The notes below the pieces were generated by a model that was given only the letters and a program-made list of their open reading frames with translations, searched no databases and was not told the DNA's origin. A DNA stretch of 63,618 nt, the filler included, from Globobulimina sp. (Eukaryota), in NCBI GenBank assembly GCA_003354225.1. It is 26 parts of 26 records of this genome, joined end to end, with 100 filler letters (N's around TTAATTAATTAA, not from the genome) between each part and the next. Parts side by side here need not be neighbours in the genome. Positions count along the whole stretch, not along the records: positions 51,931 to 54,301 come from PIVH01007092.1; 25 more parts are not named here. The stretch is one strand, 5' to 3'. Shown one piece after another: positions 8,023 through 63,618 of this stretch. Numbering within the stretch: the stretch's first letter is position 1; the number at the start of each line of letters is the position of its first letter. The position numbers and the translations under genes were made by a program.

Positions 8023-8023
8023 C

Positions 8024-33636: not shown

Positions 33637-33679
33637 TAAGTCATATCTGAGTGAGTTATATAATATATATGGTGATTAA

Positions 33680-39472: not shown

Positions 39473-39572
39473 NNNNNNNNNNNNNNNNNNNNNNNNNNNN
39501 NNNNNNNNNNNNNNNNTTAATTAATTAANNNNNNNNNNNNNNNNNNNNNNNNNNNNNNNNNNNNNNNNNNNN

Positions 39573-40863: not shown

Positions 40864-40907
40864 GGTTTAGTAAGGCTGTTTTTCACCGAATTACTTATTT
40901 ATATATT

Positions 40908-41291: not shown

Positions 41292-41481
41292 GTTGCAAAT
41301 AAATTTATATTTGAAATTAAATTAAATAAAATAAATTGTACGAAAAAGACATCGTTTTTGCAATATATCGGACTTGTGGATGATTATATTAAATTTTTAC
41401 TGAAGTGAACTACTTATTAAATCACCGCGTCAACGATATTTATATCAAACAATAATATATTGTAAACCATAACTATACCAA

Positions 41482-41944: not shown

Positions 41945-42044
41945 NNNNNNNNNNNNNNNNNNNNNNNNNNNNNNNNNNNNNNNNNNNNTTAATTAATTAA
42001 NNNNNNNNNNNNNNNNNNNNNNNNNNNNNNNNNNNNNNNNNNNN

Positions 42045-42694
42045 GTAAAATGTATTGGTTTTAATGGGAAGATCACTGAAATCACGACTTTAATATGGAA
42101 TTATATGCGCATTACGCAGCCATTGACGCGGTGCGAATTACCCAACAGATTTAAACAAAACGTATTGAAAATATTTACCAGTTTATACAAGTTGTTGTGT
42201 AAAATTGATGGTATTTTATTAACACATAATTATATTCCAAGCACAGAATATGAAAATTGCATAAAAAAGATTGCCAGAGATATCTATGAAACCATTCAAC
42301 GGTTTATTGATGAGCTACATTATGAGGATTCGAATGGAAATAATGATGATAGGAATGATAGGAAAACGAGTGCAAAAATAAGAATTATGCTGCGACAATC
42401 GAGGGAAATGGCTGGTTGTCGTTTTATATGGAAAAACATAATAATATTCTCAGCAAAATTGCGAGCAATAAGAAAATACCATCGTTGAAAAGAGCGAGTA
42501 AAATAAAGTTCAAAGCGCGGGCTTTTGTAATCACAGAGGAGGAAGGAAATGGCAGTTATAAAATAAAAGAGAATAATACTAATGAGACGAGTGATAATAA
42601 TGCAGGAGTGTTACGAGTGCAATATATGATGGAAAAGATATTTGGTGCATCTCCAAAATATTGTCAGATGCATGTATACAAATGGAAAGAGTAA
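42045..42694 (+). CDS. Helical protein C-terminus resembling FANCI solenoid 4; frameshift near 42420
   Basis: LK..LY..L...FI..L...AKI..LRQSR..F.MEK..L.K.A...AR.F.I recalls the FANCI C-terminus; recognised by eye only. Confidence 0.4.
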
Positions 42695-42963
42695 TAAATA
42701 AATTAGTTTCTTGTCAAGAACCGCGAAAATATGATTAAAGTGTGTAAATATTCGTTGTTAATCGATCTATAACATAATATTTGATATTTCCTTTTTTTTG
42801 TCGTGTAATGTAGTATAAACGCATTGCTAGTCAGTTCAAAGTACTTCAAAGTAGATGGTCAAATTACGCTGTTTTCACAACTGTGTGACAGAGTTTTTTA
42901 AAATTCAGTACATATCGGAGACCCCTAATGATGCTTTGAAAAACTTAACGCGACTCATCGATC

Positions 42964-44139
42964 ATGTTTGAAAAAGGAGATATTGTGGAAATACTTGGAC
43001 TGAAATCAAAACCAGAATGGAATGGTAAACCCGCAAAAATAAGTAACAATTTCAATTGGGATAAAGGCAGATACCCCATTTCTATCATAATAAATGATTC
43101 AGCAAACGAAGCATTGTTAAAACCATCAAACATGAAACTTATCTCCAAAAATTTAAATACAGACCAACCATTTCCAGAAAGCAAAGAGCAAAAAGATGAT
43201 GAAAGAATATTGTTTGACTTAATATTAACGAAACAAAAAGGAATTGGAATGTTTGCACGATGTGATATCAAATCAGGAACAATAATTTTGAATGACAAAC
43301 CGTTATTGCATTTAGCTAGGAATACATTTGAAAGCAAAGATGATAAAATGAAAAAAGAGTGCATTATGGATCAATATAAGTTATTATCAAAAGCAAACAA
43401 ACAAAAGGTATTGGATTATCATAATAATATTCAAATCAATGAGAATGATATCGATGTATTGGGTATATATTTTACAAATGCGTACACAATCATTGATGAT
43501 GAAGCCGACATTGAATCTGCTTTCTTCCCAAACATTGCCCGAATGAATCATTCGTGTTTCTCAAATTGTGAAGTATTAAAGTTTGACATTCACACAAAAT
43601 CCCGATCAATTATAGCTTTGTTTGATATTAAAAAAGGTGATGAATTAACTATTTATTATATTGGCAATACATATTATACATTGGGTATGATTCAAAAAGT
43701 TAGAAAAGAATACATTTTGAGCCAGTTTAATTTTGAATGTGCATGTAATTGTTGTGTCAATTATGATCGACAAATTGAAAATTATAGGAAACAATACGGT
43801 AAATTACAAGATATTATTGATGAGAATGTTAATAGTTTTGCTAAAAAATCATTTAAAGCCGTGTTATCTGCAAGTGAACAAATGATAAAAGTTGTAAAAG
43901 ATGGATTTAATAAATATCCAACAATTTTAAGTCAATGTTATATAAATGCTGCACATGCTTTATTATTTTTGAATGAATACGACAAATGTATCAAATATGT
44001 GAAAAAATCAGTGGAAATTGATCAAAAATATTATAAAAACAAAGCAATATTTGATGATGTCGAAGAGATTCTTGCTAAATTACCAAATAAATATTATCAA
44101 AAATACCCTTGGCATCATGTGTTGAACTTACACATATAA
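42964..44139 (+). CDS. SET-domain lysine methyltransferase (SMYD/Set5-like) with C-terminal TPR-like helices
   Basis: KGIGMFA..DIKSG, RMNHSC..NC, DIKKGDELTIYY, FECACNCC. Confidence 0.9.
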   Translation: MFEKGDIVEILGLKSKPEWNGKPAKISNNFNWDKGRYPISIIINDSANEALLKPSNMKLISKNLNTDQPFPESKEQKDDERILFDLILTKQKGIGMFARCDIKSGTIILNDKPLLHLARNTFESKDDKMKKECIMDQYKLLSKANKQKVLDYHNNIQINENDIDVLGIYFTNAYTIIDDEADIESAFFPNIARMNHSCFSNCEVLKFDIHTKSRSIIALFDIKKGDELTIYYIGNTYYTLGMIQKVRKEYILSQFNFECACNCCVNYDRQIENYRKQYGKLQDIIDENVNSFAKKSFKAVLSASEQMIKVVKDGFNKYPTILSQCYINAAHALLFLNEYDKCIKYVKKSVEIDQKYYKNKAIFDDVEEILAKLPNKYYQKYPWHHVLNLHI

Positions 44140-44557
44140 TTCAATTCATTCCATTTAAACTTTATATATTGCAGAGCACTTTTTGCAAACTCAACACAAA
44201 GTTATAAAAGATGAGAGGTGATGTACTGCAAATATTATGCAATAAAAAATCGTATCAAAAAATGTGAAAAAAAAAGATAAACTATGACTTGTGTATAATA
44301 ATAATAAAAAAACCATTGATACAAAATGAATTCAACAAACAATGCAGATCGTATAAACTCAAGAACTAAAAAGAAAATTGCATCCAGGCATGCCAAAAAA
44401 AAACAAAATAAAATAANNNNNNNNNNNNNNNNNNNNNNNNNNNNNNNNNNNNNNNNNNNNTTAATTAATTAANNNNNNNNNNNNNNNNNNNNNNNNNNNN
44501 NNNNNNNNNNNNNNNNGTGTTGAATTTTTTTTATTTTTTTTTTATGTTTTTATATTA

Positions 44558-44690
44558 TTTTTTTTTTCGAAAAAAGAAACGCGTTTCCGACAACACAGGT
44601 TTTGTACGAGGGGGGCCGGGGGGGGGGGGGAGCCCGCGAGGTCAAAAACTGTGTTTTCGGAAACACGTTTCTTGTCTCGAAAAAACAAAT
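44558..44690. repeat. Inverted repeat (~45-bp arms) around a poly-G core, MITE-like
   Basis: TTTTCGAAAAAAGAAACGCGTTTCCGACAACACAG...CTGTGTTTTCGGAAACACGTTTCTTGTCTCGAAAA. Confidence 0.7.
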
Positions 44691-44899
44691 TGAATAATAT
44701 ACTATAATAATAATAAAAAAACTTCCACAGCTCAACGATGCAAGTTTCTACAATTCATCAAATAATTAATAGCGTTAGGCTGTTTCCGGCAATATATACC
44801 ACTTTTGTATGCATCAATAATTATTTTCCTGTGTAAAAAACGTTTATTTTATACAGCGCAGACTACATTCGTTTCTGAGGTAAGATGAGAGGATTTCTT

Positions 44900-46339
44900 T
44901 CATTCAATCAAATATTTTGAATGTTTTGAATGAGTGAGTGTTATACAATGATCATTATGTTGATCTAAATCAAGAGACCAATTTAAATGTTGAAAATCTA
45001 AAAGTTTTTGCAATAACACATGTTGATTTTTTTCATTCATATTGCATTTGATGATATAATCTCCATTCTCGAATTGCAATAAGTATAAAACGAGTGACAT
45101 TTTCATCTCAATTGTTTCCACATCTTTTAAATCAACAATTTTGAACATATTTACATCATCAATATTAACAAAATGTGTGTCATTATAAAATAATTGTGAG
45201 CATAAATCATTTATTATCTCACTACAAACATTAATCTCCGGCTTATGTATTGATATCCAACTTAATCCATCAAATTTTACCATTTTCAGATCATTATCAC
45301 TATCAACTTCCATGTTCATTATATCTTGAATGTGTTCTTTGTTTGTAATGTTTGTTGGTTGCAATTGCATTAATTTAATGCACGATTTATAATAAATAAC
45401 AGCTAAATATTGATCATTGATGATGTTTTTAATGGTTTTATAAATATCAATGCATTTTTGATATTGCTTATTATTAAAATAGCAATTTAAACAACAAAAT
45501 GCAATCACTGCATCATTCATTAATTCATTGTATTGAATAATATCATTATTTTTATAAATTTCTGCCATTTCATCCATTACATTCTCTAATTTATCAACTG
45601 CAGCTGCCTCCGCAGTATTGCTTGTATTCGAGTATTGATAAATACATTCAATTAATACTTTAATGGTCTCAACATTTGGAATATATTGAAAATCATGAAT
45701 AGCAATTTCAAAATAATTAATAGCATCTTCCAAACTTTGTGCTTTGCAACATCCAGTAATCAGACATTCAAATGTGTCATGTGATGGGTGGACTGCTAAC
45801 TTATTAATAAATAATTCATACAAATTATTTAAATTTGAAAGTGAAATTGCTGCATTCTTTTGATATTGAACCAATTTTAATACTGAATTTATATGAATAA
45901 CACATAAATCTATATTATCACTCGTCATTTGCTTGAGAATGTTATGTATTAAATCAAGATCAACATTTAAATCATGATTAGGCGCAGGTTCACTGCATAA
46001 TATATTAAATAAGTAATCATAAAATTCCTTTGAGCGCGGTATATAATTATTTAATAAATATTGATAAATTTTTATTGCAATGGCATTGTCATTAAATGAA
46101 TTATTTATTGTGGACAAAGCAATGGATGGGATAAAATTATTATTTTTTAAATATGGAACAGATAATGATGTTGTAAAATAGTCATATAACTGTTGCGCGG
46201 AATTACTTGTTTCTATTGTTTCAATAACATCTGTGATAGCAGTTGATGATGAATAACATCTATACATCTTCAAAATATCTACCCTCAATAACTTCGAGCT
46301 AGAGCGAAGAGAATGCGACAGACTGAAAAGCCGCATCAT
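44900..46339 (-). CDS. PPR-repeat protein with mitochondrial-type presequence
   Basis: TFECLITGCCKAQSLEDAINYF..YIPNVET; N-terminus rich in R/S/L. Confidence 0.75.
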   Translation of the reverse strand: MMRLFSLSHSLRSSSKLLRVDILKMYRCYSSSTAITDVIETIETSNSAQQLYDYFTTSLSVPYLKNNNFIPSIALSTINNSFNDNAIAIKIYQYLLNNYIPRSKEFYDYLFNILCSEPAPNHDLNVDLDLIHNILKQMTSDNIDLCVIHINSVLKLVQYQKNAAISLSNLNNLYELFINKLAVHPSHDTFECLITGCCKAQSLEDAINYFEIAIHDFQYIPNVETIKVLIECIYQYSNTSNTAEAAAVDKLENVMDEMAEIYKNNDIIQYNELMNDAVIAFCCLNCYFNNKQYQKCIDIYKTIKNIINDQYLAVIYYKSCIKLMQLQPTNITNKEHIQDIMNMEVDSDNDLKMVKFDGLSWISIHKPEINVCSEIINDLCSQLFYNDTHFVNIDDVNMFKIVDLKDVETIEMKMSLVLYLLQFENGDYIIKCNMNEKNQHVLLQKLLDFQHLNWSLDLDQHNDHCITLTHSKHSKYLIE

Positions 46340-47245
46340 TAGGGGTCTCCGATAAGTACCGTTTTTTTCAAAAACTTATCAAACAGTTCTCAAAAATGCA
46401 ATCAGTTTGATAAGTATTTTCATTTTTTTTATATTATAGAATCTTAACAAGAATGAGTCAATGAGTAACATGACTTATATATAAGCACCCATAGCAGATA
46501 TTACAAAAAACAAATAAACATTCACAAAAAATATCACATATATCCTTGCACTTTCACATTTATCTTGGTGCGCATGCTGCTGATTTAATTTTTTGTAATC
46601 AAAATTGAAACTAAAATGGTTAAAATAAACACAGACACATATTATATACCGAAACAATATCATAATCGCAATGAAACACAAAAAACCATAAACAAAAACA
46701 CATAAACGTGTGATCCGTAACAAATACATAAAATTTGCCAAAAGTAGCAAAAAAAAGCATTACAAAACAATATCGCTTCAGAGACAACAAAAAATAAAAT
46801 GTATAACAACGAATAAAATGACAAATTTGTTAATAAATCAATTGGAAATTTAACAATCTCCGCAGTATTCGTCAAAACGATCGAATAANNNNNNNNNNNN
46901 NNNNNNNNNNNNNNNNNNNNNNNNNNNNNNNNTTAATTAATTAANNNNNNNNNNNNNNNNNNNNNNNNNNNNNNNNNNNNNNNNNNNNGTTTTTTTTGTT
47001 ATTTTGCATGCATGTACGAGTTTGAAAACGAGAAATGTTTGTAAATTACTAGTACGTACCAGATCCATTGTCGATTACTATCGAATGTCCTTCTTCATCA
47101 TATTCAGAATCTGACATATTATAAATGAGGGGTTTATTGTTGATCGAAGGAGTAGAAAGTACAAGAAATTAGTAGTTGAAAGGGGAAAGTTTAGTTGGTT
47201 TTTGTATGTAAAAAACAGTGAAAAACTCTAATTATCCAATAAAAC

Positions 47246-49359
47246 ATGGCTCCCACGTTGGTTTACTATTTATCACTGTTGCTCATTCTGAGCTGCAATG
47301 CCCAATCAAACGGGTGGATATATGATTTATCCCCTCGCGAAGCAGCAGATTTGGTGAAATCAGAATTCCGCCATGGATACGAAGCCTATAAAAATTATTC
47401 CTGGGGATTCGATGAACTAAAACCAATCACCTTTAACGGAATTAATTGGAGCGAGAATTCAATGATGATAACACCCATCGATAGTTTAGGAACAATGGCA
47501 ATTATGGGTTTGCAAGATTTAATTGATATGACTCTGGATGAATTATTATGTGATGGCAGTGAACCAAAATTCTCATTTATGATGGACCAAAGAATAAATA
47601 TGTTTGAAATAGTAATCCGAGATTTAGGCGGTTTAGTCTCTGCATATCATTTCTTACAAAACAATGCTCATAAACAATGCGTCAAGAAATTAGCAATCGA
47701 GTTAGGAGACGGTATCTATGAAACTACCTTCAACGGCAAAAACAATGTAGCAAATATCGCAGATTTACCATGGATCGATATCAATATTGTCACACAAAAA
47801 GTAAATAGGAATTGGACACATTTTGCGCCAGCGGGCTTAGCATCGAATATCATTGAATTTGGAGCGTTGAGCTACATTGCAGACGATGCTAAATATTATA
47901 TTGCAGCCAAGAAAACCATGCGGAAAATCTATGATTTACGTTCTCGCGAAACGGGTCTGATTGGCGCAGCATTAAATGTTATGACCAGAGATGTGAATAA
48001 TTTTACTGAATTGTGGCCGGATAACAGTGCTCATCTCGACGCTCAAATTGATTCCTATTATGAATATATGATTAAATGTTATTTATTGTTTAAAGATGAA
48101 GAATGTTTGAGATGGTGGAATGAGGCAATTGATTCGATCTATGAATATCTACAATATCGCGGTTTGATAAATATATATTTATCTTTTCATTTATATATTT
48201 TCTAAGTGTCAACATATATCTTTTTTTCCTCATACAAGATGAAGCTGATAATGTTTGGTTTCAACGTGTTGATTGGAACAATGGTACTGTTTTTGGAAAC
48301 GACTCCCGCCATTTCTCATATCGTTATTCATTGCATGCACATTTTATGGCTGCTACGTTGGCGTTGGACGAGGACTTAGACATTGAACTGGCAATAAAAA
48401 ACCAAGAGGCAAATCATTTAATGTGGAGCATTGAAGGCATCACACCATTTATGTATGACTTTGCTGAAGAAGTTATAATATCGCCTCAATATGACTTGAA
48501 TCCGGAAATATTTGAAAGTAATTATTATTTATACGTCAAAACAAAGGATATATTATATTTAAACCGGACCTATGAATATTTGGATGCACTCCTAACATAC
48601 ACAAAATGTGTAGACAATATCGAATGTGCCGGATATTCCTCCATTGAGGATGTGACCACAAAGGAAAGAAAGAATACATGTCCGTCGTTTTGGTTTGCAG
48701 AGAGTTTGAAATTTTTATATTTAACATTCATGTTTGCTGCACCTGATAACACATTTAATTTTGATGAATATATATTTACAACAGAAGCCCATCCAATTCC
48801 TCGTGGTTGGGGCCAGAATGCATATTTATGGACGGAAGCAGGTGACGTCACAGCGGAGGATATCTGGGCCTTTATTAACCTGTACATATTTTCTGTGATT
48901 ACAATGATAATCTGTTTGTATATGACAGTATTGATATTTTGTACTAAATTGACAAAACGATCGCGATATGTGGTGGACTTCCAACAATTGGACGGAACGG
49001 AGGTGGACAATTTTGAAAATGATAAAATTGATGACACTGAATTTAAAGCAAGTTATTATTCTGCCTTATATTCATTTTTTGCAATGCTTTTTTTATTCCT
49101 ATCAACCGGCGTAATAGTATTCATCCAAACGAATGCTGTCATTGATTGGAGTTTTGATAGATATGGCAATGAGGAATTGGATTATTTGAAATGGAGTTGG
49201 TTTATGATGGTATCCTTGTATCTGTTGGGCAAAGTGTTTATTTTTTTTACATTTTCCTTTTTAGTAACTTCGAGAACATCGAATAAATTCCTATTAAGAT
49301 GGTCGCGCATATTTATTGTTGCCGAAGTGATTACAGCATTGATTGTTCAGATTATATTA
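47246..49359 (+). CDS. GH47 alpha-1,2-mannosidase (EDEM/Mns1-like) fused to a multi-TM C-terminus (intron 48162-48238), 3'-truncated
   Basis: Signal peptide; Y..YSWGFDELKP, IDSLGT, FE..IR.LGGL.SAY, DSYYEY..K, PE.FES, SFWFAESLKFLYL, FTTEAHP; then at least 4 TM helices in the same exon. Confidence 0.9.
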
Positions 49360-50399
49360 NNNNNNNNNNNNNNNNNNNNNNNNNNNNNNNNNNNNNNNNN
49401 NNNTTAATTAATTAANNNNNNNNNNNNNNNNNNNNNNNNNNNNNNNNNNNNNNNNNNNNTTTCGGTGCGAGGCTCAGTATTTTCTCATATAATTCTATTA
49501 ACCGATTATCATTTGATGTAATTATCATTTTGTAACATTGTGCCAATAAATTAGTATAATCGTCCAATATCTGACTGGGTATCTTATCGATTACATTCGT
49601 AATTTAATGTTGACATGAAAAAAGCTTTGTGGATTTATTTTTTTTGCTCCACACTACTGTTTCACAAGTAAGAAAACTCCACAATACTGTTCCGCAAAAA
49701 ATGTGCCAAAATTCGCTTGTTTTACTTTGTTGCGAATGTGCGTATTCGCCAAAATATTATTATTCAAAATAGCTAAATTCTGCGTCTTCGATATCGTGCG
49801 ATTGGTATCTATCAATGTACGCATTCCATTCTGCTTTGAATTGTTCATCGCTTTCAACCCAATCTGTCCACATGGAACACCATCCTTCTTCTTCGCTATT
49901 ATATGTTGTTGGATTTGCGTATTTAAATATATCTTCTTCATGTTCTAAGACTGCTGGATTGCAATCAGATAAATATGAATATATATATTAATTGCTACAC
50001 TCTTTGGTATCTTTCCAATGTCGATTAATATCGAGATTTCGTGCGAATAAAAATGTAAATAATACTCGCTTTGTGAATAAGTCAAAGTGTTTAACAGTGC
50101 CAGTTTGTGTCGCTAAAAAAAATGCGAGAGTATGGCTTTCGTGAAAAGTTAGTGAAAAGTGTCGAGTATTTATAAGAATGTTGTGATAGTAATTTGGATG
50201 AGAATATATTTCAACAATTTAGGGAAAAGGCGGGAAATAAACACCAAGAGTTGCGAATGTTTTTGGAATGGATTAACAAAGCAAATGATACGTAATATGA
50301 TATGTTATATTATATATAGTATATAGTTATTTATGTTTTTTTTTATATAATTATGTTTGTATGTTTGTAATGCAAGATTTGTGTGATTTACGCGCTTCT

Positions 50400-50475
50400 T
50401 AGAGTTTTTGACAAAAATAGAGTTTTTCCACAAAAATAGAGTTTTTTCACAAAAATAGAGTTTTTAACAAAAACT
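50400..50475 (+). repeat. 19-bp tandem repeat x4 just upstream of the sulfotransferase start
   Basis: TAGAGTTTTT(T/C/G)..ACAAAAA units. Confidence 0.75.
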
Positions 50476-50510
50476 AGCTTTCTAATTTAGCAAACACAGC
50501 CAGAAGGAAC

Positions 50511-51470
50511 ATGGACATCAGCGAACCCATAATCGGTACCCACGTCTCGACAGATATAACCGGACAAACCAATAGCAAGAATCAATTGAAATTGTTCCTA
50601 ATCGGTAGCAGAAGGACAGGAACAGTGACAATAACATCATTTCTAGAAAACGTTGGTTATGGTAAAAAATATCATGGCTGGACCTTATGGTATTATAGAA
50701 ATCGCGATCTTAAATTTTGGGAAGATGTCAAGCAGCAAAATGGCGAAGATGTTGAATGGGATGAATTATTTGAAGAAAATAATTATGAAATCACCTCTGA
50801 TCAACCTTCCATTTTATTTTGGAAATCTTTGGTCAAATATTATCCACAAATGAAAGGTAAGTAAATTATATATATATACATTACATACAAATCTATTATA
50901 ATATAAATAGTTGTATTAACAATGCGAAACGATAACAAATGGTTTGAATCGTACAAAAATTCGATCGCGAAAATATATTTAAACCCAACCATTAGTTTTG
51001 TGATTACAATATCAAAGTATTTGGTACCCGGCGCTGTAAAATATTTTAAGCTTTTCGACCATGGCTTCTTTCAAACGTTCAAGTATGAAAATGACGGATC
51101 GCGGGTTTTTGACAGAGAATATGCAATAAACCAATATAATTCGAGGAATGAAGAAATTATTCGCTATTTTCAAGATAAGCAGGAGAAGGACAGATTTTTT
51201 ATAATGGACTGGGATCGAGAGGATAAAAACGAGTTATTTTTGGAAGTAATGCAATTTTTAGAGATTAAATTCACGCCTCAACAATTAGCCCAATTGAAGC
51301 GACAAAACGGTGGATATTTCTTTCCACATAAAAATAATACAAGAACAATGAGACGCGATATTGTGTTGAATTTGGTGGGATATGTGCTTGGATATAATGC
51401 CATTCCTATACTACTTGTTATTGTTGCTATGATTGTAATTTTTTTTTTATTTTTTATTTTTTTTTTGTAA
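50511..51470 (+). CDS. Sulfotransferase-like P-loop protein, tail-anchored (intron 50857-50910)
   Basis: IGSRRTGT, SDQP..FWK.L..YYP..KVVLT.R..KWFES, FPHKN; C-terminal TM. Confidence 0.82.
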
Positions 51471-51930
51471 ATAGAGCAATGCTTTGCGCTCCAATTTTAA
51501 TTTAAATACATCACACGATTTTTATCCAATATTTGTATAACATTTGTATATATCAAAAACCTGAAAGAAAGCGTTTTTGATATATCACACAACATAAAAC
51601 AAAAATAAACATCAAAAGAGATACAAACAAAATGTTACATACAAATAGGAATTATTATGCTTATTGCATTAATGTGCAAAACAAATGATACTTGGTGATA
51701 TAAGATAACTTTTAGCCACCATTCACGTGGTAAACTTTATTTTTGCTCATTCCTTCAGGATGTTGTGATACAAAGTTTTTTAGTCTCAGTCAACTAGAAA
51801 ATCTAAATGCTAGCATGGCGATTATGGCAANNNNNNNNNNNNNNNNNNNNNNNNNNNNNNNNNNNNNNNNNNNNTTAATTAATTAANNNNNNNNNNNNNN
51901 NNNNNNNNNNNNNNNNNNNNNNNNNNNNNN

Positions 51931-52785
51931 TTCATGCAAACTGTTAAACTCACTGTAATATAACATATAATTAGATATCTATCAAATTGTTATGTAACTC
52001 AACTGTATTAATTTACAATATGACTTGATATCATTTACGGATTTGAAGTGTTGATTTACGGATTCAACGTTAATATGAAGTTGTTTTACATTACAATATC
52101 TGGATTGTAATTGATTGAGATAATATTTATTGTTTAAATATTTATTAACAAACAATTTAAAATTAATTGAGGTAGAAAATGAATATGAAGAAGATATGGA
52201 TGACGGTATACATTGTAAAGGAGTTATTATTTTTTGATCTAAATTCATCGGAGTAAATGATAAATGCATTTGTGGATTAACATCATACATATTATCCATT
52301 CGAAATGCATAGCAACTCAATGGATTGCGAGCAATGGATACAAAAAAACGACATGTTTTCTCCATATTTAATACACTGAAGATATCCAAAAATTGACAGG
52401 AATAAATCAATACATCATCAGCTGTTTTTATATTAGGATTTGAATAAAAATAAAAAACATATAATATACGCAAACCTAAATCGAATATGGAGAAATTTGG
52501 AATTTCAACAGAGTCTGTATTTGGTGATAGTGGATCCGGAATATCTGCGTTTGTTTCATTAACCATTTGATTAATGTTATTCTTTAATGTTTGCATGTTT
52601 TCTGATGTTATTTTTGGTAAAAGAGAATGTAATCCGCAAAATAGAATACTTTGCACAATTTCAAGATCAATGATGTTAGGCAACAATGATAATACGGCAG
52701 ATAACTCATTTCTGTCACACTTTGAAATACACTTTCTTATCTCTACCAAATTTACGAATTTGTCATTTAACTCTACTGAGTCCAT
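51931..52785 (-). CDS. F-box-like protein, 3'-truncated, probable intron ~52423-52474
   Basis: Spliced IFDLADDVLIYSCQFLD..S..NMEKTCRFF. Confidence 0.6.
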
Positions 52786-52870
52786 GGCATGGATTAAGAA
52801 GATGAGAAAAATTTTGCTTTAAAGAAGGGAAAAAGTAAAACATTTAATTACTAATTTTGTTTTGAAATTT

Positions 52871-54301
52871 TCACGGTAAATCACTTTGTTTTTCTTTTAC
52901 ATTATTATCATAATTTTCATCTTTTTGCTCACTCATTGCATCAGCTTTAGTCGACTGTGCATACTGACAACAATCACATTCATGCTTTGATTTATCACAG
53001 ATATCCTTCATCGTAAACACTGCAGAAATCGGTAAATGGTCAGACACAATTTTCTCACTCGGTAAACTCCAAATATTTGTAGGTATTCCTTGCTCCATTT
53101 GTATATCACTCTTATTATTCTGCATAGCTTTCCTATTCCTATCAATCTCCACCTTCAACTTCTCCATCACCTCAGTGACCTCACCATTATCCTCATCCTC
53201 ATTCACTGTCCGCGTGATACCGCCCAACACCATATTATTGGCCGTAAAATATATAAAATCCATCGCCGCAACAATGCGGCCATCGGAAAAAGTGGGAAAA
53301 TGTTGCAAGCGATCAAAATATTCATCCATTTTATAACATTTTTTATTTTTATGTTCAACCGGAACAGCAACACTGTCCCGGCTCAAATAGGAAAGCAATC
53401 CGTCATTATAACTGTCCCGAAACTCATAACAATGTCGAAATATATTATGTTCCTTGGTCACCGCCTCCGGCACATACTGCATTCGCGTAATTACATACGA
53501 TTTGGTCTCAAACAATTGTTTTACAATAATTTTCATCGTCGAGTAAATGGCTTTTTTGCTGCCAGAAATATCGATGGTTTTCTCCGTGGAATTATACAAT
53601 CTCTCCGCAGAAATATGCATTTTCGCCCAGCCCATTTTATAAATCTGTGCTATATTTAAACATTTGATGTTTTCCTCATCGATGCACATCAACAACGAAG
53701 TGGTTTTGATGCGCGTATTGATCATAGAAATGGCTTTCAAGACTTGCAAATACGTCCCGATCAAAATCACGATGCGATTGCGCATCTTATAGTTCCTCTT
53801 ATAATTGTTGGAAGTGGGGATTATCACTTTGGCTTTGGACACATTCTTCAATTTGCGGATAAAAAACCCTTTGTGGCCTATCAAATAGCCGACGTCGGTG
53901 GCGGTGAATATAAAACGAAGCGGCCGGACAACGATGCGGTCACTGTCCAGGCATTGCAGTCCTTGCTTGGAGACATTATTTATTTTGATTTTGTCGTAAT
54001 TAATGTGTTGATTCACCAATAATTTGTCACATAGACTTGTTTTCGGTGCATTGAAATCGCCACAAATTATAATCCGCATATTGTGTGTTTCTCCGTTGAT
54101 GTTTGAAGTAAATCCGATGTTTGCAATTTCGTTTTGTTTCTTGTCATGTTTGTGTTTATATGCATTTGCAAACTGATCCAGTCTTTGGACGATTTTCTTA
54201 ATTTGGTGCAATCGTTGCATGTGTTTTTGAGGGTGGCCGGTTAAATGGACATTTACTACGAAAAAGGAGTGATAGACACAGGTTATATTATTATTTGTGA
54301 G
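52871..54301 (-). CDS. CCR4/nocturnin/Angel-like EEP nuclease-phosphatase with inserted KH domains, 5'-truncated
   Basis: VVNVHL..HP, R..QI, IICGDFNA, PTF..MDFIYF, SDHLPI.A.F; KH motif VGYLIGHKG..I..L...SKAKV.I. Confidence 0.85.
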   Translation of the reverse strand, partial: LTNNNITCVYHSFFVVNVHLTGHPQKHMQRLHQIKKIVQRLDQFANAYKHKHDKKQNEIANIGFTSNINGETHNMRIIICGDFNAPKTSLCDKLLVNQHINYDKIKINNVSKQGLQCLDSDRIVVRPLRFIFTATDVGYLIGHKGFFIRKLKNVSKAKVIIPTSNNYKRNYKMRNRIVILIGTYLQVLKAISMINTRIKTTSLLMCIDEENIKCLNIAQIYKMGWAKMHISAERLYNSTEKTIDISGSKKAIYSTMKIIVKQLFETKSYVITRMQYVPEAVTKEHNIFRHCYEFRDSYNDGLLSYLSRDSVAVPVEHKNKKCYKMDEYFDRLQHFPTFSDGRIVAAMDFIYFTANNMVLGGITRTVNEDEDNGEVTEVMEKLKVEIDRNRKAMQNNKSDIQMEQGIPTNIWSLPSEKIVSDHLPISAVFTMKDICDKSKHECDCCQYAQSTKADAMSEQKDENYDNNVKEKQSDLP

Positions 54302-54401
54302 NNNNNNNNNNNNNNNNNNNNNNNNNNNNNNNNNNNNNNNNNNNNTTAATTAATTAANNNNNNNNNNNNNNNNNNNNNNNNNNNNNNNNNNNNNNNNNNN
54401 N

Positions 54402-55891
54402 TATGATTTTCTGGGTCATGATCCTCAGAATAATCATGTTGAAAATACGCCCATTCATTCAAATCTAATTCATTGCCGCCATTTTCTGAATAGACTTGAA
54501 TATATTCGTTGTTGTATGCTTTTAAAATCGTATTTTTAATTTTAGAATGCACAATTTTAATATCATCAAAATCTTTAAAATTATGAACCACTACGATAGA
54601 CTTTCTTGAATGGCCACGCATCAAACTACTCGCCGTCTTAATAATATCATCCACATATTTTCGTTTATATGAAGTTAAACCATCGATCACAATCAATACT
54701 AAATCACATAATGTCAATGCAACTTCCTGATGAAACCTATCCGTAGCTCTTCGCAATTTGCTTCTTTCATACTCATCCACACGATGCTCGCCTTCTGTAT
54801 CGATGCACAACAAATCACCGTTAAACACGACGGATATACCCACTGTTTTCACCAAATGGCCATCGGGGATATTTTTATTGCATAACTGTTTTAATAACCA
54901 TGTTTTGCCGGATTTAAATGGGCCGACGGCACAGACTCTGCTGCCTTTTCTTTTTTTATTGACTTCTAAAATTTGTGTATTATTTACATATGATATTAAA
55001 CCATACTCTGTTATGTCAGAAATAAATTGTTCGTTACCATTATAGATTGCGTCATATACTTTGAATCTTTCAGTTGTCAATATTTCTTCAGGTATAATGG
55101 GACCATCGTGTTTCAGAGGCGCTGGCTCAATATATTTACCATCGATTTTGTGGATAAACTTGCCTTCTTTGTTTATATTGCTGGTAAAGCCAATATTAGC
55201 AATATTCTGTGAGCCTGAACCTGGCACTTTTTTATAAGTGGTACCATCACCTTTATTAAAGCCAGCGTGAGCGTGTTTTCCTTGTGATGCGTCACCGTAT
55301 GTCCAGGTAATGCCGTCAGTGCCTGTTAAATAATTAAATATGACAAATGAGGATTCCTTATCCACTACAATTATTAATTGGAATGTGTTAAATTTATCAT
55401 TGTGTTTACTGTAATACCCCACATGATCCCAGGTGACAATATATACCATTTCAGCTGAAAAGGTATGTCGAAATGATGGGAATACTTTAACAATTTCATT
55501 TGTTCCTTTTCTGAGATCAATATCGTTGGTCGATTCTCGATAATAAACATAACCTAACGCCGACACACAACGTTAACGTTTTTAATATGTTTTTATATAT
55601 AGATATAAAAAAAATATACCTGAGTTATGTTGTCGTGTGTCAACATCTGCCCAATATATCGCTAAAAATAACTCATTTTGCAATGGAAAGGCCTTTGGAA
55701 TGTATTCTGAAACGCCACGATTTATGAATATGATCAAAATATTTAATACTATGCTGCAATGTGATTGGACCTAAATAATTATCATCACCTAATTCTAATT
55801 TATTGTCACCATTTGATGTTCCAAAATTAAAAAATTCATCAAATTCAACACTGTTAACAATACCAAAAAACAAAAAAACGAAGAAATGCAT
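54402..55891 (-). CDS. Signal peptide + NIDO domain + P-loop GTPase; intron 55554-55619; frameshifting deletion near 55717; 3'-truncated
   Basis: YWADVDTR..G.VYYRES, VTW..V, NTFQL, F.IFNY..ITW..G..AHAGFN.GDG (NIDO); GPFKSGKT, T.G, DTEG, VVHN (GTPase). Confidence 0.8.
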
Positions 55892-57197
55892 CTCTATTAA
55901 AAGCACGTACGACGCGTCGCGACCTATTAAAAGAAGTAAAATTGAAAAATCAAGTGGAGTTTTGAGTTAGATCATGTCGCTATCGTTACGGTGTTAAATT
56001 GAAATCCCAATAACAGTTGGAGCCCAATAAACCGATTATTTCGAAATTAAAGGAAAAACAGTTGGAATTGAAGTAATTACAAATGAAATGATCCGCATTT
56101 TACAGTTAATACAGAATATATTATATTTGGCACCATCGCAAATAAAAAATAAATTTGTTTTGAATAATTTGGGAGAAATATTAATAAAAATGTATCCATC
56201 GACGATTTGCATGATAGGTTGTTATCGGTTTGTGTTAATTTGATTGCGCATTCTCAAAATGCAAAATATGTGATATGTTTTGGCGAAATGAAAGAGAAAA
56301 TTAATAAAAAAAAAGAATTTATTATCGGAAATGCAAATAACAATAATTGTGATTTTTTATTGAATATATTATCGGAAGTATTTAAATTACTGATTGGAAG
56401 TATTTAAATTTTAACAAACAATTTGATAAAATTTGTCTCATATTACATTTACTTGCGCATTCATTGTATTGTTGTTTGTGTTTCTTATTTTGGTTATTTA
56501 AAAAGAAATAATTGGTTTTTTACAATCTTAATACATTTTGCCTTTTCAATATTAAGCATCGTGTTTAAGAGTTGTCATTAGACACTAATAATACGTATAC
56601 GGGAACAAGCAGAATGAATTCAAATTCATCAGTTAATTCTAGAATGGAATGCCAAACAACGTTTGATTTCTATAAAATACTGGTTTCTATTATTTCATGT
56701 GGTTATGCAGTTGTTACAAAAGGTTTGGATATTATATCCTTGCACTTTACTATCATAAATGTATAAATGTATNNNNNNNNNNNNNNNNNNNNNNNNNNNN
56801 NNNNNNNNNNNNNNNNTTAATTAATTAANNNNNNNNNNNNNNNNNNNNNNNNNNNNNNNNNNNNNNNNNNNNAATAAACAATATGCCTTATAATTAACAT
56901 TTCATATTTAATCATGCGTCAAAAAAATGTTTTTAACATTATTAATAAAATGTTATCTTTTAACATTTTATTTATAACCTATTTTCCTTCCTTTCTGTTT
57001 CGTCGTCGAGACTCTTAGCCGAAATTCATTAATGGAAATCATATTTAGGATCGCCAATCTAAAAGACATTGAAGTAACGTCTTAAGAAAACACTTAGTTG
57101 GACGCCTAAATTTTCCAGTTTCAAGTTAATGTCAACGTGAAAAGGTTTCAAGAATATATCCAACCTGAAATTGACGCTACTCAACTAACTCAAGACC

Positions 57198-58911
57198 ATG
57201 GCTGACGCAAAAGCAAAGGAAGAGGATAATACTCTGCTCAATCGATTTTCCCGCGCGGTGAGTGGTGCTCCCGACGCAGCCAAAAATTATCCCAAATGGC
57301 CAAGCGATCATCCATACGCCTACACAATTGGCGATGTCGAGTATCGGGAAGTTGTCGACCACAAAACCGGTAAAACCGTAAAATTATTATTCGGCTTAAA
57401 TACATGGCCGGAACGCTCATTAAAAGTACCAGGCCTCGCTTTAGATGCTCTCGACGCAAACCCAGAGAAAAAAGAAAAATCCAAAGACAAAAAAAAGAAA
57501 GATAAGAAAAAAAAAGAGCCGCCACCAATCCGTAAAGTCTTTGTCTCGTTCAAAGTAAAACGAGTGTCGGATATCGACAATGTCGAAGAACAATTTCGTA
57601 TCAAATTTCATTTATATTTCAATTGGCTGCCAACCTACGAAGAATATATAAGTTTCAGCACGACCGAAGCTGAACAAATCTACAAATGGGAGCCTCGCTG
57701 GTATCCCCATTTGGAATTTATGAATCAAATCGAGCCCATCGACCCCTTTCCGCGTTGGGAGGAGTATCCCGATGAAGGCAGGTTTCGCCTACAAAAATTA
57801 AAAGGTTTCTTCGGCACTTTGTGCGACGACCGATCCATATATCACACGGACGATCGGAGTGTGCCATTGGCGGAGCGTAGCCCCATCGGCGTGTTTGACA
57901 GCAATGATTGCTATTTCATCCGCGCCAAATACGATGTTGAGATGCTCCTTTCTGAGGAGTTGGAATTGCAGTCCTTCCCTTTCGACTGTCAGGATTTGTC
58001 CATCATTATGCGCGAGAACACGCGCGGTGTAAATATCTCCTTTTTGCCGGAAATGAGGAAGACTACGTTCGGCAGCATTGACCCCCGCTACTCTGTGATT
58101 GATGAATGGGATATGGAGTCCGCGCGGATCGAGTTTGGTTCCACCAATGCTGTTAAGTTTATATCTGAGATTTGTATATACGCAAATTCGCATTGTATGC
58201 ATATACACTGTCCAGGGCTCGTCGCGATCGTCGACTACTTATCCGGCGATTATATTGCGCTTAAAAATGAAGAGAAGATGGGAGGTCTTTATGTGGAACA
58301 TCGTGTTGTTGGTGCTATGCATCGAATGTTTGGCGATCACCGCCTTTGCACTCGATTTGGCGGAGGAAACCAGTGACCGTTTGGGGTTAAGTATAACTTT
58401 GGTGCTTACTGCGGTTGCTTTTTTGCATATTGTTAAATCGGGCTTGCCCAATGTGCCATATTTAACCTTTTTAGATTTTTATGTGTTGTCAAGTTATGTG
58501 TTTTTGATGTCGATCATGCTCGAAACTGCCATTTTATCTGGATTTGATGTGCCGGAAATCTGGGATTATAGGTTTATGATTTGCTGCATTACGTATCAGA
58601 TATTGTATCATTTGATATTCTTTTTTTATTCAATGTATGTTCGAAGACAAGAATTGTTGAAGTTGGTGATGGACAGTGACTCGATTGAGGAGGACGTGAA
58701 CCAATCGCGTCCGGCGTTGGCCTTTGATTATAGGAAAGGTTCGAGACAGGGCGATCCCGTCAACCCCGACGACAAAAACTCGCAGCCTCGCTTGCTGTAT
58801 TTTAGAGCATACAAAAAAGAACCGAAAAAAGCGGAGGAGGTGAAAGGAAAAGATAAAAAAAAGGATGAGGCACCGAAAAAAGACGTGGAAAAGCCATTGA
58901 TAAACAATTGA
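57198..58911 (+). CDS. Pentameric ligand-gated ion channel subunit, Cys-less type (intron 58152-58215)
   Basis: DIDNVEEQF...W, W.P.LEF.N, LQSFPFDCQDL, RLGLSITLVLTAVAF, LPNVPYLTFLD.Y, four TMs. Confidence 0.9.
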
Positions 58912-59451
58912 TGATATTCAAGTGAATTTGTAACTTTATCTGTTGTGTAAATCTTATCATTCCCATTTGATTTGTCTTATGGTTTCATATGATTATATAT
59001 GTGGTGTTTGTTTTTTGTTTGGTCATTTTGTGTGTATTATTCACCATGTTTTTGATGTTTAGCTTGTTGCTTCTCCGCAATATATGTGCATTAGGCTGCG
59101 ATAGCGTTTTTGTTGTCAGTGATTCTTGATTCGAAAACTTTGATTTTCGATTTTCTAGAGTTGATTCTGTCTCTACGAAAGTTGATTCTCCACGGAACAG
59201 TCTATCTATATCTCTCGTAACTGCCCATAGTAACTAATATCATNNNNNNNNNNNNNNNNNNNNNNNNNNNNNNNNNNNNNNNNNNNNTTAATTAATTAAN
59301 NNNNNNNNNNNNNNNNNNNNNNNNNNNNNNNNNNNNNNNNNNNAGAGAGCACAAATATGTACGCATGGCGCACCAAAAACAAACAGATTTGATCCAAGTA
59401 AATGTAGAAAACGATCGGAAAAAAAAAAGAATGCAAGAATACCATGGAAAA

Positions 59452-59530
59452 ATATTGAGGCAACAATCAAAGTGACATTAATGCAACAATCAATATTGAG
59501 GCAACAATCAATATTGAGGCAACAATCAAT
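59452..59530 (+). repeat. Short tandem repeat (ATATTGAGGCAACAATCA units)
   Basis: Three exact-like copies plus one degenerate copy. Confidence 0.65.
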
Positions 59531-59869
59531 TCCCACTACCAATGCAACAATTAACTGAAGCAATGAATGCAATCACAGCAATTGATTCATATATACATCC
59601 ATCTCACATTGCAATTGTGAAGCAATATAACGATATGGTAAAAAAAAGAAACAAGTTGCTTGTTCTGGGAAAAAGAAAACTAAAAAGAAAACGAAAAAAT
59701 CTCAATCAGGAAACGAATCATCTAAGAGGCCACGTAAAAAACGCAAAACATCAACAAAAAAGAAATTGAATGTTGGAAATATTCATAGGAAAAAGTCTAT
59801 TTAAATGTGATTGACAATCTATTTAATCTTTTTCAATAGGGTTTTTGCTTTTAGTTCATTTCTTCAATT

Positions 59870-60062
59870 AAGCATATTGGCAGCATATTGGAAGCATATT
59901 GGGAGAATATTGGGATCATAATAAGCATATTGTGAGCATATTGGGGTCATATTAAGCATATTGGAAACATATTGGGGTCATATTAAGCATATTGGGAGCA
60001 TATTGGGATCATATTAAGCATATTGGTAACATATTGAGAGCATATTGTGACATATTGGGAGC
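59870..60062 (+). repeat. ~10-bp minisatellite (GCATATTGGGA-like)
   Basis: About 18 CATATT cores in tandem. Confidence 0.85.
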
Positions 60063-60484
60063 AGAGTGTTGTTTCTGTATATTTGTTTAAACATATTCAG
60101 GCAGACAAGGTTCAAATACTAATTTAACAACATTCCCTAACATACACACAGCAATGACTACATAATTATAATATGTTGATAGATAAAACAAAACAAGACA
60201 TAGTGATTTATTATTTGTAGGTAATAAGATAGGCCGGATATGTTGCTTCATTTTTATAAACATTTAATATTTTATTATTTCGTATATATTTTACATAGAC
60301 AATCTTTAAATAATTCACTTTAATAGCAGCTGTACAGAAATATTAAATTACTGCCAAACCGATTATGCTATAAAAATAGAAATAATTATAAACTCCGCAT
60401 AGAAATAATTACACAAAAAACAATCCACTAAATCCCACATTTTTAATTCAAAGGCAGTTAAGAATAATAAACAAATAATTATCA

Positions 60485-61036
60485 ATGAAAAAAGCCATGA
60501 CATTAATTATTTTATTATTGATTGGTGTTGCTACGTCGTTCGACTTCGATATATTTGAAAAAGCAAAGAGTTATGCCAGAAAAGCAAAGAGTTATGCACA
60601 AAGAGTAAAAGAGAATAAAGTCAAGCCTACATTTAACACATTTGGAGAAAAAGGGGTCAAGCGTACAGTAAGCCATCCGCGTGGAAACCATAAGACTTCA
60701 TCAATCCGTGAGGCTGCATCAGGAGGCCAGCGCACAGCAAATCGTGTTGCACCTGGAATCATTGATGCCAGAAAAGCAAAGAGTTATGCACAAAGAGTAC
60801 AAGAGAAAAAAGAGGCATCACCAACCACTGCTTCAACAGTCACCTGTCGACCAACAGATAAATGGAGCGGAAAAATACCAAACAATTGGTGTGCTATCAA
60901 TTGTTATGTTCCTGGTACAGCTGTTTTACACCCAACATGTCAGAAAAAAGCTTGTTTTGTGCCAGCTGATTACCCCAACCATGTGCACATGCCAGCTGAT
61001 CCAAGAACACAGCTGATTTTGTGCACATGCCAGTAA
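60485..61036 (+). CDS. Small secreted basic protein with KAKSYA repeats and a Cys-rich C-terminal module
   Basis: Signal peptide; (AR)KAKSYA x3; CRPTDKW..WCAINC..HPTC..C..CTC. Confidence 0.75.
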   Translation: MKKAMTLIILLLIGVATSFDFDIFEKAKSYARKAKSYAQRVKENKVKPTFNTFGEKGVKRTVSHPRGNHKTSSIREAASGGQRTANRVAPGIIDARKAKSYAQRVQEKKEASPTTASTVTCRPTDKWSGKIPNNWCAINCYVPGTAVLHPTCQKKACFVPADYPNHVHMPADPRTQLILCTCQ

Positions 61037-61289
61037 AACTGAGGATACAGTGAGGATATATGACGATTGTTCTCTGGTGTTTTTAATTTTAATTGTCCTT
61101 AATATAACAGATTATATTATACGAACTGCATAACCAATTACATTAGAGTTTTCCTATTTAACCTTGATTTTGCTCATGATCAACTTTTTTAATCATTTGT
61201 GAATTGTTAGAGAAAAAGCTTAAGTAAATATTCGTCTCATAGTCTCGTCTTGATTACAAGAGTGTGGACACTTTCTCACTGTTTTTCAA

Positions 61290-61714
61290 TCTATACTATC
61301 CTATACTATCCTATACTATCCTATACTATCCTATACTATCCTATACTATACTAAATCCCTGCTCACACGAGTGGGTAGTCTAGCTAGTATCCCGGGGAAT
61401 ATTTATATCCTGGAGCACCTAGAAGCTAGCTCACACGAGTGGGTAGTCTAGTCAGTGTCCCGGGGAATATATGATAGACGGGTACCTAGAGTTCAGCTCA
61501 CACGAGTGTCACCCCAAGACGTACTGAGCACCTTCAGAAATATTGCATCGGTGGCTCAGCACTATACTAACGCGAGAATCGAACCCGCGATAGTGGCGTA
61601 TCACTACGCCACTACAAGGCCACCTCTAGTAATTTATACAGAGTACTGAGCTAAATCCCTGCTCACACGAGTGGGTAGTCTAGCTAGTATCCCGGGGAAT
61701 ATTTATATCCTGGA
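61290..61714 (+). mobile_element. Putative non-autonomous Helitron-like 5' end: (CTATACTATC)n followed by a 300-bp tandem unit with ~68-bp subrepeats
   Basis: A|TCTATACTA start; 61351-61414 recurs at 61651-61714; GCTCACACGAGTG at 61361, 61429, 61496 and 61661. Confidence 0.5.
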
Positions 61715-62446
61715 NNNNNNNNNNNNNNNNNNNNNNNNNNNNNNNNNNNNNNNNNNNNTTAATTAATTAANNNNNNNNNNNNNNNNNNNNNNNNNNNNNN
61801 NNNNNNNNNNNNNNTTGGGAATAAAAGACAACTAAAATATTCCATTTCTCATATTGTTTTGCATTGTGAACATAATACAAAATAAATATAGGTTGTGGTT
61901 ATTTATATAGTTATAATATTTTCTTTCACCTTAACATTTTCTTGCATAATTTTGCATAAACCTATAGGTGCACAAAAGGCCACCATCGAGTATCTTGAGT
62001 TGGGTTGTGTTTGTTTCTTAAATCGTCAGAACTGTTGACATGACGGCAAGGCTGCAGCGTTTTCAAATTCTGACTTATAAAAAGATTTACTGACTTTTTA
62101 TGATTCTTTCCTATGTTTTATGATCATTTTCAAATAGTATTTGTTAATATCAGAAAAATAGCAGAAATATCATCATTAAAGAATCAAATCTCATGTATAA
62201 TAGAATTAGATTGGAAAAATATGTATATATAATATTCGGGCATATTAAATGCCAATGATTCACAATAAATTCAAAATACAATTGAAATGTAAAGAGGATG
62301 AGGAACTTTGTCCATAAGTGTGAGGATACAAAAAATAGAACACTTATGGACAAAGGTCCTCATGCTCATTGCGAAAACTATATTTATATTCTTATTAACT
62401 ATATAGATATAATACAGAGTCAATGTAAGCAAATAAATCTAGAGCT

Positions 62447-63560
62447 CTATTTTTTTTGTCTTGCAAATAAAGCTAACTTTGGAAAACCTTGAACTAACAA
62501 ATATCCAGCAATTCGAATAAGAGCCCACACGAATAAAATAGTCGAAGCAAATCCACCCATAAACAAATACGCGTTTAATATATCATGGCTTGACACGATT
62601 TCACAACAACCATATTCTTCCTCAAAACATAAATGTTCACTCGATGTAGATATATCGTCTCTACATTTCAGATCAAATTTCTCCTCTAAATAATAATTAG
62701 CAAGAAATCCAATGACCGCAGCTGGCAATAAACTCGCTAATGATGGAAATATAAATATTATACCAAACATCTCAAACAAATTCGTATTCTCTTCTAATTC
62801 TCGCACAATATCAAAATAGCCAAAGTCAACACCCATAATCAGCAAAACTGCATTATCGAGAATTCGAATGTCTCTATGAAAATAAATCAATACAAAATGT
62901 GAAATAGAAGCTATTAACGATACAACCCCCCAAATTATATACGCTATCATCCACGATTGAATTTCATCCCACATATTCATCTCAGTTAATCCTGCAAACA
63001 CATTTATGATTGGTGTTATGGCCATTCCTGAATAAAATAAAAAAATAAAAACTATATACGCAAAACGAGACATATGCTCTGTGCTAAAACAATGAACGCA
63101 GCAATAACCTAAGAATGCAATTGTCGATAAAATTAAGGTTGGAATGCAATGTAAAATAATATTAATAGTCAGCGCGACTGCGATAAGTTTGCCTAACATT
63201 CGCGATTGTGTGAATAAAGCTAACTTTGGAAAACCTTGAATTAACAAATATCCAGCAATTCGAATAAGAGCCCACACGAATAAAATACTCGAACCAAATC
63301 CACCCATAAACACATACGCGTTTAATATTTCATGGCTTCAAAAAATTGGCTTGATACGATTTAACAACAACCATATTGTTCCTCAAAACATAAATATTCA
63401 CATTTCAGATCAAATTTCTCCTCTAAATAATAATTAGCAATAAATCCAATGACAGCAGCGGCAATAAACTCGCTAATGATGGAAATATAAATATTATACC
63501 AAACATCTCAAACAGATTCGTATTCTCTTCTAATTCTCGCACAATATCAAAATAACATTT
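62447..63560 (-). CDS. Multi-pass membrane protein with an internal ~750-bp tandem duplication; upstream copy degenerate
   Basis: FMGGF.S.ILFVWALIRIAGYLL.QGFPKLALF occurs at both ends of the 288-aa ORF; 62467-62590 matches 63214-63338. Confidence 0.65.
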
Positions 63561-63618
63561 TGGAGAGTTTTTCCGGTGATTTTGGTTTCATCATACGATT
63601 CTTTTAATGGATTTTCTG

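Follow-up and report, generated by a model that had tools for sequence, protein, structure and literature searches.

In a window of 63,618 nucleotides of Globobulimina sp. DNA (assembly GCA_003354225.1), we found a real and expressed gene of a protist, most likely a foraminifer; the part present, its 3′ two-thirds, encodes a CCR4-like nuclease of the EEP class with two KH domains nested inside its catalytic domain. The domains themselves are known; the nesting of KH domains in an EEP nuclease is new and so far confined to foraminifera. Our literature search, outside which lay subscription journals and supplements, turned up no paper that describes KH within an EEP nuclease domain. We place high confidence in the architecture and in its conservation. 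Taken as a whole, the gene is probably best explained as encoding a nested-KH, CCR4-like, Mg-dependent EEP phosphodiesterase that would tether RNA in cis, and a mechanism in which the tethered RNA is processed at its 3′ end is a tentative extension of that reading.

The window (positions 1..63618) consists of 26 separate contigs of 2370–2374 bp, ordered by size, with the last one cut by the end of the stretch. The contigs are joined by 100-base linkers in which TTAATTAATTAA stands between runs of N (25 occurrences, regularly spaced at ~2.47 kb), and these N/TTAATTAATTAA/N linkers place stops in all frames. The gene is located on a contig of 2371 bp (51931..54301) that has such artificial linkers on both flanks, and its minus strand carries a 476-codon frame, free of stops, that extends from 54301 to a TGA at 52871–52873. 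At a GC content of 38%, we estimated from the base composition that a frame of this length would arise with a chance of ~1e-14, and the frame is thus not a chance product. It enters the linker at 54302, which leaves the gene without its 5′ end, and the open reading frame (ORF) at 52871..54301 covers only the 3′ part, as alignments with homologues confirm: these match it only from their own residue 174–185 on, placing ~175 N-terminal residues, the 5′ third, off the contig. The first-pass annotation had read the frame as uninterrupted, and the stop-free frame stands; it is not a whole gene, as it runs into the linker and the copy is a fragment. Because the ORF past the linker belongs to another contig, the neighbor beyond 54402 provides no genomic context. 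In a tblastn search of the other 25 contigs of the window with the homologues, we found no locus besides the KH/EEP one.

All the motifs that had been read in one uninterrupted frame were located within the 476 codons, in the same nested order. On the minus strand, these are the EEP motif NVHL with the catalytic His (residues 17–20, 54242–54253; His in every family member covering the column), the EEP motif GDFN with the catalytic Asp and Asn (residues 81–84, 54050–54061; invariant in the family alignment), the nucleic-acid-binding GXXG loop IGHKG of the first KH domain (residues 141–145, 53867–53881), the motif LYNSTEKTIDISG of the second KH domain (residues 235–247, 53561–53599), and the remaining EEP motifs DFIYF with a catalytic Asp (residues 348–352, 53246–53260) and SDH with a catalytic Asp and His (residues 420–422, 53036–53044). 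The fragment thereby retains six of the six catalytic residues that it covers (H, D, N, D, D, H), and the full set (N, E, H, D, N, D, D, H) is present wherever covered in 10 of 10 insert-bearing proteins.

By sequence and by predicted fold, the enzyme is CCR4-like. The profile check gave a divided outcome: KH_1 was significant on the contig fragment, where the Pfam EEP models stayed below their cut-offs, and on the full-length homologues Exo_endo_phos was significant (35–48 bits) together with KH_1. When the KH-less paralogue P0009 was compared with the PDB sequences using phmmer, CNOT6L came first (2e-12), followed by Ccr4, CNOT6, ANGEL2, PDE12, and Nocturnin, these enzymes making up the first 11 of 12 matches. 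For a full-length representative of the nested type, we used P0002, which is 51% identical to the contig protein, and its AlphaFold2 model has a mean predicted local distance difference test score (pLDDT) of 74.3 and a predicted template modeling score (pTM) of 0.69. The best Foldseek matches of this model were CNOT6L, CCR4-CAF1, ANGEL2, Nocturnin, and PDE12, with alignments of 560–610 columns reaching across the insert, and the insert itself was matched by the KH1-2 tandems of Nova-1 and IMP.

In VIA-align comparisons against the P0002 model, CNOT6L reached Z 31.8 (303 of 335 residues, model range 11..579, root-mean-square deviation 3.2), PDE12 Z 30.3 (288 residues aligned), ANGEL2 Z 29.0 (304 residues), and Nocturnin Z 28.0 (264 residues), and the other EEP enzymes (TDP2, ExoIII, APE1, and others) Z 23.4 or less. 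The alignment of the model to CNOT6L continues on either side of the insert, so the EEP halves make up a single CCR4-like domain, which answers the question that the first-pass annotation had set for structure prediction. No two of the first four scores differ by more than about 4 Z units.

Relative to the KH-less paralogues, the insert comprises residues ~99–286 (53444..54007, minus strand; P0001 has 186 residues in those alignment columns) and contains two KH domains in tandem. KH1 (residues 126–198, 53708..53926, minus strand) is a type I domain with beta-alpha-alpha-beta-beta-alpha order, a model pLDDT of 73–91, tandem-KH Foldseek matches, and a Pfam KH_1 match of 38.5 bits on residues 134–195 (cut-off 21.5). 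KH_1 was also above the Pfam cut-off in all four of the insert-bearing homologues scanned, and the two KH-less homologues included in the same scan had no KH match. KH2 (residues 200–268, 53498..53704, minus strand) is recognized by its fold and by homology (a KH2 profile, the model, and alignments with free three-KH proteins) and has its GXXG loop deleted; the Pfam scan reported nothing for KH2 alone. A KH2-only profile built from eight family members (A3) found PCBP2 KH1-KH2 at E 2.1e-8, with KH proteins accounting for 12 of its 14 PDB matches, the match being restricted to the part after the GXXG position. When the whole protein was compared with the PDB sequences by phmmer, PCBP2 KH1-KH2 (2jzx) was matched over residues 126–265.

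The AlphaFold2 model of the contig protein agrees with these assignments over the insert. Its mean pLDDT is only 50.7, as expected from the truncation of the EEP domain; across residues ~121–270, the block means range from 48 to 94 and most exceed 80. Both KH1 and KH2 have the beta-alpha-alpha-beta-beta-alpha topology in this model as well as in that of P0002, and Foldseek matched the contig-protein model to the KH1-KH2 tandems of IMP1, IMP3, Nova-1, and PCBP2 (TMt 0.70–0.78, 154–167 columns). The KH match on which the first-pass annotation had staked its reading is thus present, and its description of the second domain as degenerate and PCBP/hnRNP-K-like is borne out. The count of two KH domains holds by homology and fold; two RNA binders is an overstatement, since the GXXG loop occurs in KH2 of none of the 10 family members. 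In KH1, it occurs in 8 of 10, with GHKG in the contig protein.

The insert is common to ten proteins from four sources, in the same nested order in each. A word-indexed search returned 14 proteins, seven with both PF00013 and PF03372 (30–56% identity, 63–96% query coverage) and seven with PF03372 only, aligned just to the flanks. In an exhaustive profile search over 1.84 billion representatives, 22 proteins reached E ≤1e-30; among the 150 matches listed, those of the nested type were P0005, P0003, and P0008 together with three fragments (P0019, P0022, and P0027), and the remaining listed matches were KH-less EEP proteins or free KH proteins. In the ESM Atlas, limited to large clusters and thus of little weight here, the four rows listed (the best three and one further family from a set of 30 matches) had scores below 0.9 and PF03372 without PF00013.

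The nested proteins of named source come from two foraminifers, Nonionella stella and Bolivina argentea, so that the architecture recurs in other rhizarian transcriptomes, where the first-pass annotation had proposed to look for it. KH-less paralogues were found in N. stella, B. argentea, and Reticulomyxa filosa. The EukProt sets presumably derive from the polyA data of a study of the first two species. For N. stella and B. argentea, that study (PMC8153729) describes sequencing of polyA-selected mRNA and Trinity assembly. One fragment from B. argentea and one protein from N. stella (P0008 and P0016) fall into one 90%-identity cluster and have near-zero branches in the tree, for which cross-contamination between the transcriptome sets or strong conservation of a paralogue could account.

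To place the insert within the family, we counted residues in the insert columns of a 36-protein alignment and found 179–222 in the 10 insert-bearing proteins, 3–6 in the nine nearest KH-less paralogues, and 4–25 in 17 other CCR4-like proteins. In a tree of the EEP part (36 rows, our own pick of EEP-type matches; 392 columns, with the insert columns removed), the 10 insert-bearing proteins and the KH-less P0009 formed a clade with a Shimodaira–Hasegawa-like approximate likelihood ratio test (SH-aLRT) support of 99. The clade was divided into two subgroups with support of 98 and 97, and the contig protein was placed beside B. argentea P0003. The placement of P0009 and the inner branch order are not fixed by the tree, and a single insertion is therefore compatible with it without being demonstrated.

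Many free tandem-KH proteins match the family profile over ~282–440 as a single stretch, the best four being P0028, P0032 (Ammonia sp.), P0033 (N. stella), and P0036 (B. argentea). With the free three-KH proteins P0036 and P0028, the insert shares 33% identity over 181 and 169 columns, respectively, and the likeness extends into the linker TRMxYxP that follows KH2, with TRMQYVPE in the insert and TRMLYDPQ and TRLVYDPL in the free proteins. At the position of the 6-residue gap in KH2 of the nested copy, P0028 and P0036 have IGKKG. We built a KH tree of 62 didomains, 10 nested and 52 free tandems, from which matches covering one KH were left out; the nested copies and the named foraminiferal free copies were placed within a 24-row clade (SH-aLRT 80), and monophyly of the nested copies was neither recovered nor excluded.

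These alignments suggest a free foraminiferal three-KH protein as the likely donor of the insert. On the simplest reading, a PCBP-like KH1-KH2 unit from a three-KH protein of the same lineage entered the loop located after the GDFN strand and its helix, and the GXXG loop of KH2 was lost after the insertion. The KH1-KH2 units of PCBP and hnRNP K (PCBP2 2JZX; also IMP1/3 KH1-2 and Nova-1 KH1/2) resemble the insert in being alignable with it as one unit. The nested copy differs from them in the lost GXXG of KH2, in lacking a third KH, and in its location inside an enzyme domain, and 6 residues that P0028 and P0036 have in KH2 are missing from its KH2. The family offers a clean case of domain insertion, as a likely donor can be identified and KH-less sister paralogues are available for comparison.

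A short contig in a fragmented assembly invites the suspicion that the nested order is an artefact, either a chimeric assembly of nuclease and KH sequence or a retained in-frame intron, and we compared the contig with public sequencing runs. Eight runs of four coded studies match the stretch wholly or partly, and four of them (X1, X2, X6, and X7) were compared. In X1, possibly the source sample, four of five contigs were ≥99% identical at low depth and collinear; in X2, from a study other than that of X1, six of seven contigs were ≥99% identical, with pieces at 53001–53320, 53291–53854, 53856–54101, and 54072–54301, the last continuing 458 nt past the contig end. In X6 and X7 the version is roughly 90–99% identical, most contigs being at 90–95% (pieces 53230–53488, 53520–54033, 52938–53488, and 53877–54301). 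The two junctions between the insert and the EEP parts, 54007 and 53444, were each bridged by contigs of at least three runs with at least 31 letters on each side.

In the gene downstream on the same contig, contigs of X2 and X7 skip 52422–52475 (54 nt) and those of X2 also 51953–52003 (51 nt), both with GT..AG ends on the strand of the gene, and X1 reads through them. From these joints we infer that X2 and X7 represent spliced RNA, which their records do not state. No canonical splice joint was found in the X2 or X7 contigs within 52871–54301; the insert is coding, under constraint, and present in these RNA-like assemblies. The fear that it might be spliced out of the mRNA has not materialized: it is kept in the spliced-RNA-like contigs of X2 and X7 and in homologues from two polyA transcriptomes.

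One X7 contig joins 53273 to 54039 and thereby skips 765 nt (255 codons), a multiple of three, which would suit an in-frame intron. We rejected it as a splice joint, as its ends are non-canonical (AT..TT), its shorter side has 29 letters, and letters between are unknown. It comes from a ~92%-identical organism, and such joints often stem from other genes; it is probably a KH-less paralogue, similar to P0009, of a related organism. This organism does have mini-introns that are in frame and free of stops, the 54-nt one in the neighboring gene among them. Set against these points, the nested order is the same in ten homologues from four sources, both junctions are bridged in runs from four coded studies, and the insert consists of two well-folded KH domains under purifying selection. 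We consider an artefact very improbable, and the chimeric assembly that had been named as a possible undoing of the architecture is ruled out by the independent contigs across both junctions and by the homologues.

Selection was evaluated from the differences between the contig and the related contigs. The counts cover 40 of 88 contig differences, 38 of them inside the ORF, and the ratio of synonymous to non-synonymous changes was 29:9 over the ORF, 13:1 in the insert, and 16:8 in the rest of the ORF. These counts bear on the possibility that the contig copy is a decaying, non-functional paralogue of a functional family, for which the 3′ end of the frame offers some grounds. The TGA at 52871–52873 falls on a conserved Trp nine codons early and is followed by KFQNKISN and a TAA (52844..52873, minus strand), equal in length to the family tail W-x-F-x-x-M-x-S-F-stop. 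The codons downstream of the stop resemble that tail also in their K, F, and S, the pattern left by a recent TGG-to-TGA change, and the 5′ end of the copy lies off the contig.

A recent nonsense mutation, an error in sequencing, or read-through could each account for the stop. A code with TGA for Trp is not proposed: both Trp codons of the ORF are TGG, and there is no in-frame TGA among the 476 codons. Decay is nevertheless hard to reconcile with a frame that has no further stop or frameshift in 476 codons, with the intact state of the six covered catalytic residues, with the 29 synonymous against 9 non-synonymous differences listed, and with the presence of the gene in spliced-RNA-like runs; the enzyme could also remain active without its last nine residues. 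A pseudogene is in our judgment improbable, and we continue to regard the copy as part of a real, expressed gene.

The C-terminal tail is common to the KH-bearing and KH-less foraminiferal paralogues and has a C-x-C-C cluster, a lysine-rich run, and the terminal W-x-F-x-x-M-x-S-F. It was seen in P0002, P0005–P0007, P0009, and P0011–P0014 (alignment A1, columns ~690–754), and we know of no family to which it belongs. The shared lysine-rich stretch and tail might be, judging from their sequence, a common localization or docking signal.

If the enzyme acts as its parts suggest, KH1 with its GXXG would hold a short single-stranded ligand (about four nucleotides of RNA or DNA), as KH families generally do, and KH2 without GXXG would serve as a structural partner packing on KH1 in a pseudodimer, as in the PCBP2 or IMP tandems. 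The enzyme would then tether its own substrate in cis and trim or dephosphorylate the 3′ end of the RNA, and recruitment by CCR4-NOT would not be needed, given the lack of leucine-rich repeats (LRRs). The candidate substrates are poly(A), a 2′,3′-cyclic phosphate as for ANGEL2, or something else. Several observations weigh against this reading of the enzyme. The contig copy is incomplete, and two catalytic residues, Asn and Glu, are in the N-terminal part beyond the contig end; its ORF ends nine codons before the family does, with a TGA in place of a conserved Trp; and the EEP part of the contig protein's own model is unreliable (pLDDT <50). The GXXG of KH1 is lost in two of 10 members (P0004 and P0019), and RNA binding is thus not universally kept. 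The substrates of CCR4-like enzymes are diverse (by PDB entry titles, ANGEL2 is a 2′,3′-cyclic phosphatase and Nocturnin is found with NADPH), so the fold does not fix the substrate. Finally, the X2 record is silent on RNA versus DNA, its RNA nature being inferred from the spliced joints.

Another reading accepts the architecture as real and makes the KH pair a protein-docking, localization, or autoregulatory module, with the choice of substrate made elsewhere. The absence of GXXG from KH2 in 10 of 10 members and from KH1 in two of 10 is in keeping with it, as is a precedent in a protein of a nuclease family: the tandem KH of N4BP1 is reported to bind EDC4 and decapping factors (PMC13586276). 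The C-terminal tail shared by KH-less and KH-bearing paralogues could also be the real docking element. On the other side, KH1 has kept its GXXG in eight of 10 members and scores above the Pfam KH_1 cut-off, and the closest structures are KH tandems bound to RNA or single-stranded DNA. The purifying selection on the insert (13:1) is compatible with either role. We judge a docking module unlikely and favor the tethering of RNA in cis.

CNOT6L, CNOT6, and yeast Ccr4 are closest to the family in sequence (P0009 2e-12) and in fold (Z 31.8), and they have the same catalytic residues. They differ in having an N-terminal LRR for CAF1 docking, none being present in the foraminiferal homologues, and in the length of the loop, ~19–20 residues in canonical enzymes (P0090 and P0158) where the nested family has a KH1-KH2 of 179–222 residues. 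No LRR was found by Pfam in the full-length P0002, P0004, P0005, and P0007, and the homologues have only ~25–45 residues ahead of the EEP domain. The same scan detected the LRR+EEP protein P0090, which is placed outside the KH/EEP family in the tree. Without LRRs, CAF1 docking as in canonical CCR4 is impossible, and the enzyme is not a canonical CCR4 subunit.

ANGEL2, Nocturnin, and PDE12 are CCR4-like EEP enzymes that work outside CCR4-NOT, and PDE12 acts on 2′,5′-oligoadenylate. They resemble the family as stand-alone CCR4-like EEP enzymes without an LRR (Z 29.0, 28.0, and 30.3, respectively) and differ in having no RNA-binding domain nested in the catalytic domain. Entry titles assign ANGEL2 to 2′,3′-cyclic phosphate and Nocturnin to NADPH; the substrate of the foraminiferal enzyme is not readable from its fold. 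In TDP2, the region equivalent to the post-GDFN loop presumably makes up the DNA-binding grasp. In another class, PARN, as described in PMC3985635, is a deadenylase with an R3H domain, which binds single-stranded nucleic acid, inserted in its nuclease domain. It is an analogue and not a relative: its fold is RNase H-like DEDD (CAF1-type) and not EEP, and the inserted domain is R3H and not KH.

The mRNA specificity of EEP deadenylases is generally ascribed to separate RNA-binding adaptors, by which CCR4-NOT is recruited. A bolder form of the proposal, which we regard as possible and rather doubtful, is that foraminifera have an autonomous, sequence-directed 3′-end RNA nuclease guided by its own PCBP-like KH1-KH2 in the post-GDFN loop. 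If true, this would be the first EEP deadenylase to read its target sequence itself, without adaptor proteins of CCR4-NOT, and two ancient paralogue groups might then differ in KH1 specificity. A KH module reading sequence would provide a natural one-polypeptide answer to mRNA targeting by a CCR4-like enzyme and would be the EEP counterpart of the inserted R3H of PARN. The family would also be a compact system for studying how tethering geometry sets 3′-end trimming, and it adds to the scant knowledge of how foraminifera degrade RNA.

On the same contig and strand, the downstream gene (51985..52818, minus strand) has no Pfam match. Of its two introns, the one at 52422–52475 is in frame and stop-free, and that at 51953–52003 holds an apparent stop; long ORFs of this organism can accordingly conceal mini-introns. 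On the adjacent contig, an unrelated ORF at 54403..55572 (minus strand) encodes a NIDO domain (121 bits) alongside a P-loop GTPase-like region (MMR_HSR1, scoring under the cut-off), an unusual pairing. The 11-residue sequence IANIGFTSNIN, located in the variable loop before GDFN of the KH/EEP protein (54115..54147, minus strand), appears again at the C-terminal end of this NIDO domain (55172..55204, minus strand). The two copies are identical at 23 of 33 bases and differ at most third-codon positions (coordinates and bases counted by eye), and the shared peptide could have arisen by chance, the sequence being N/I-rich, or derive from an old piece common to both.

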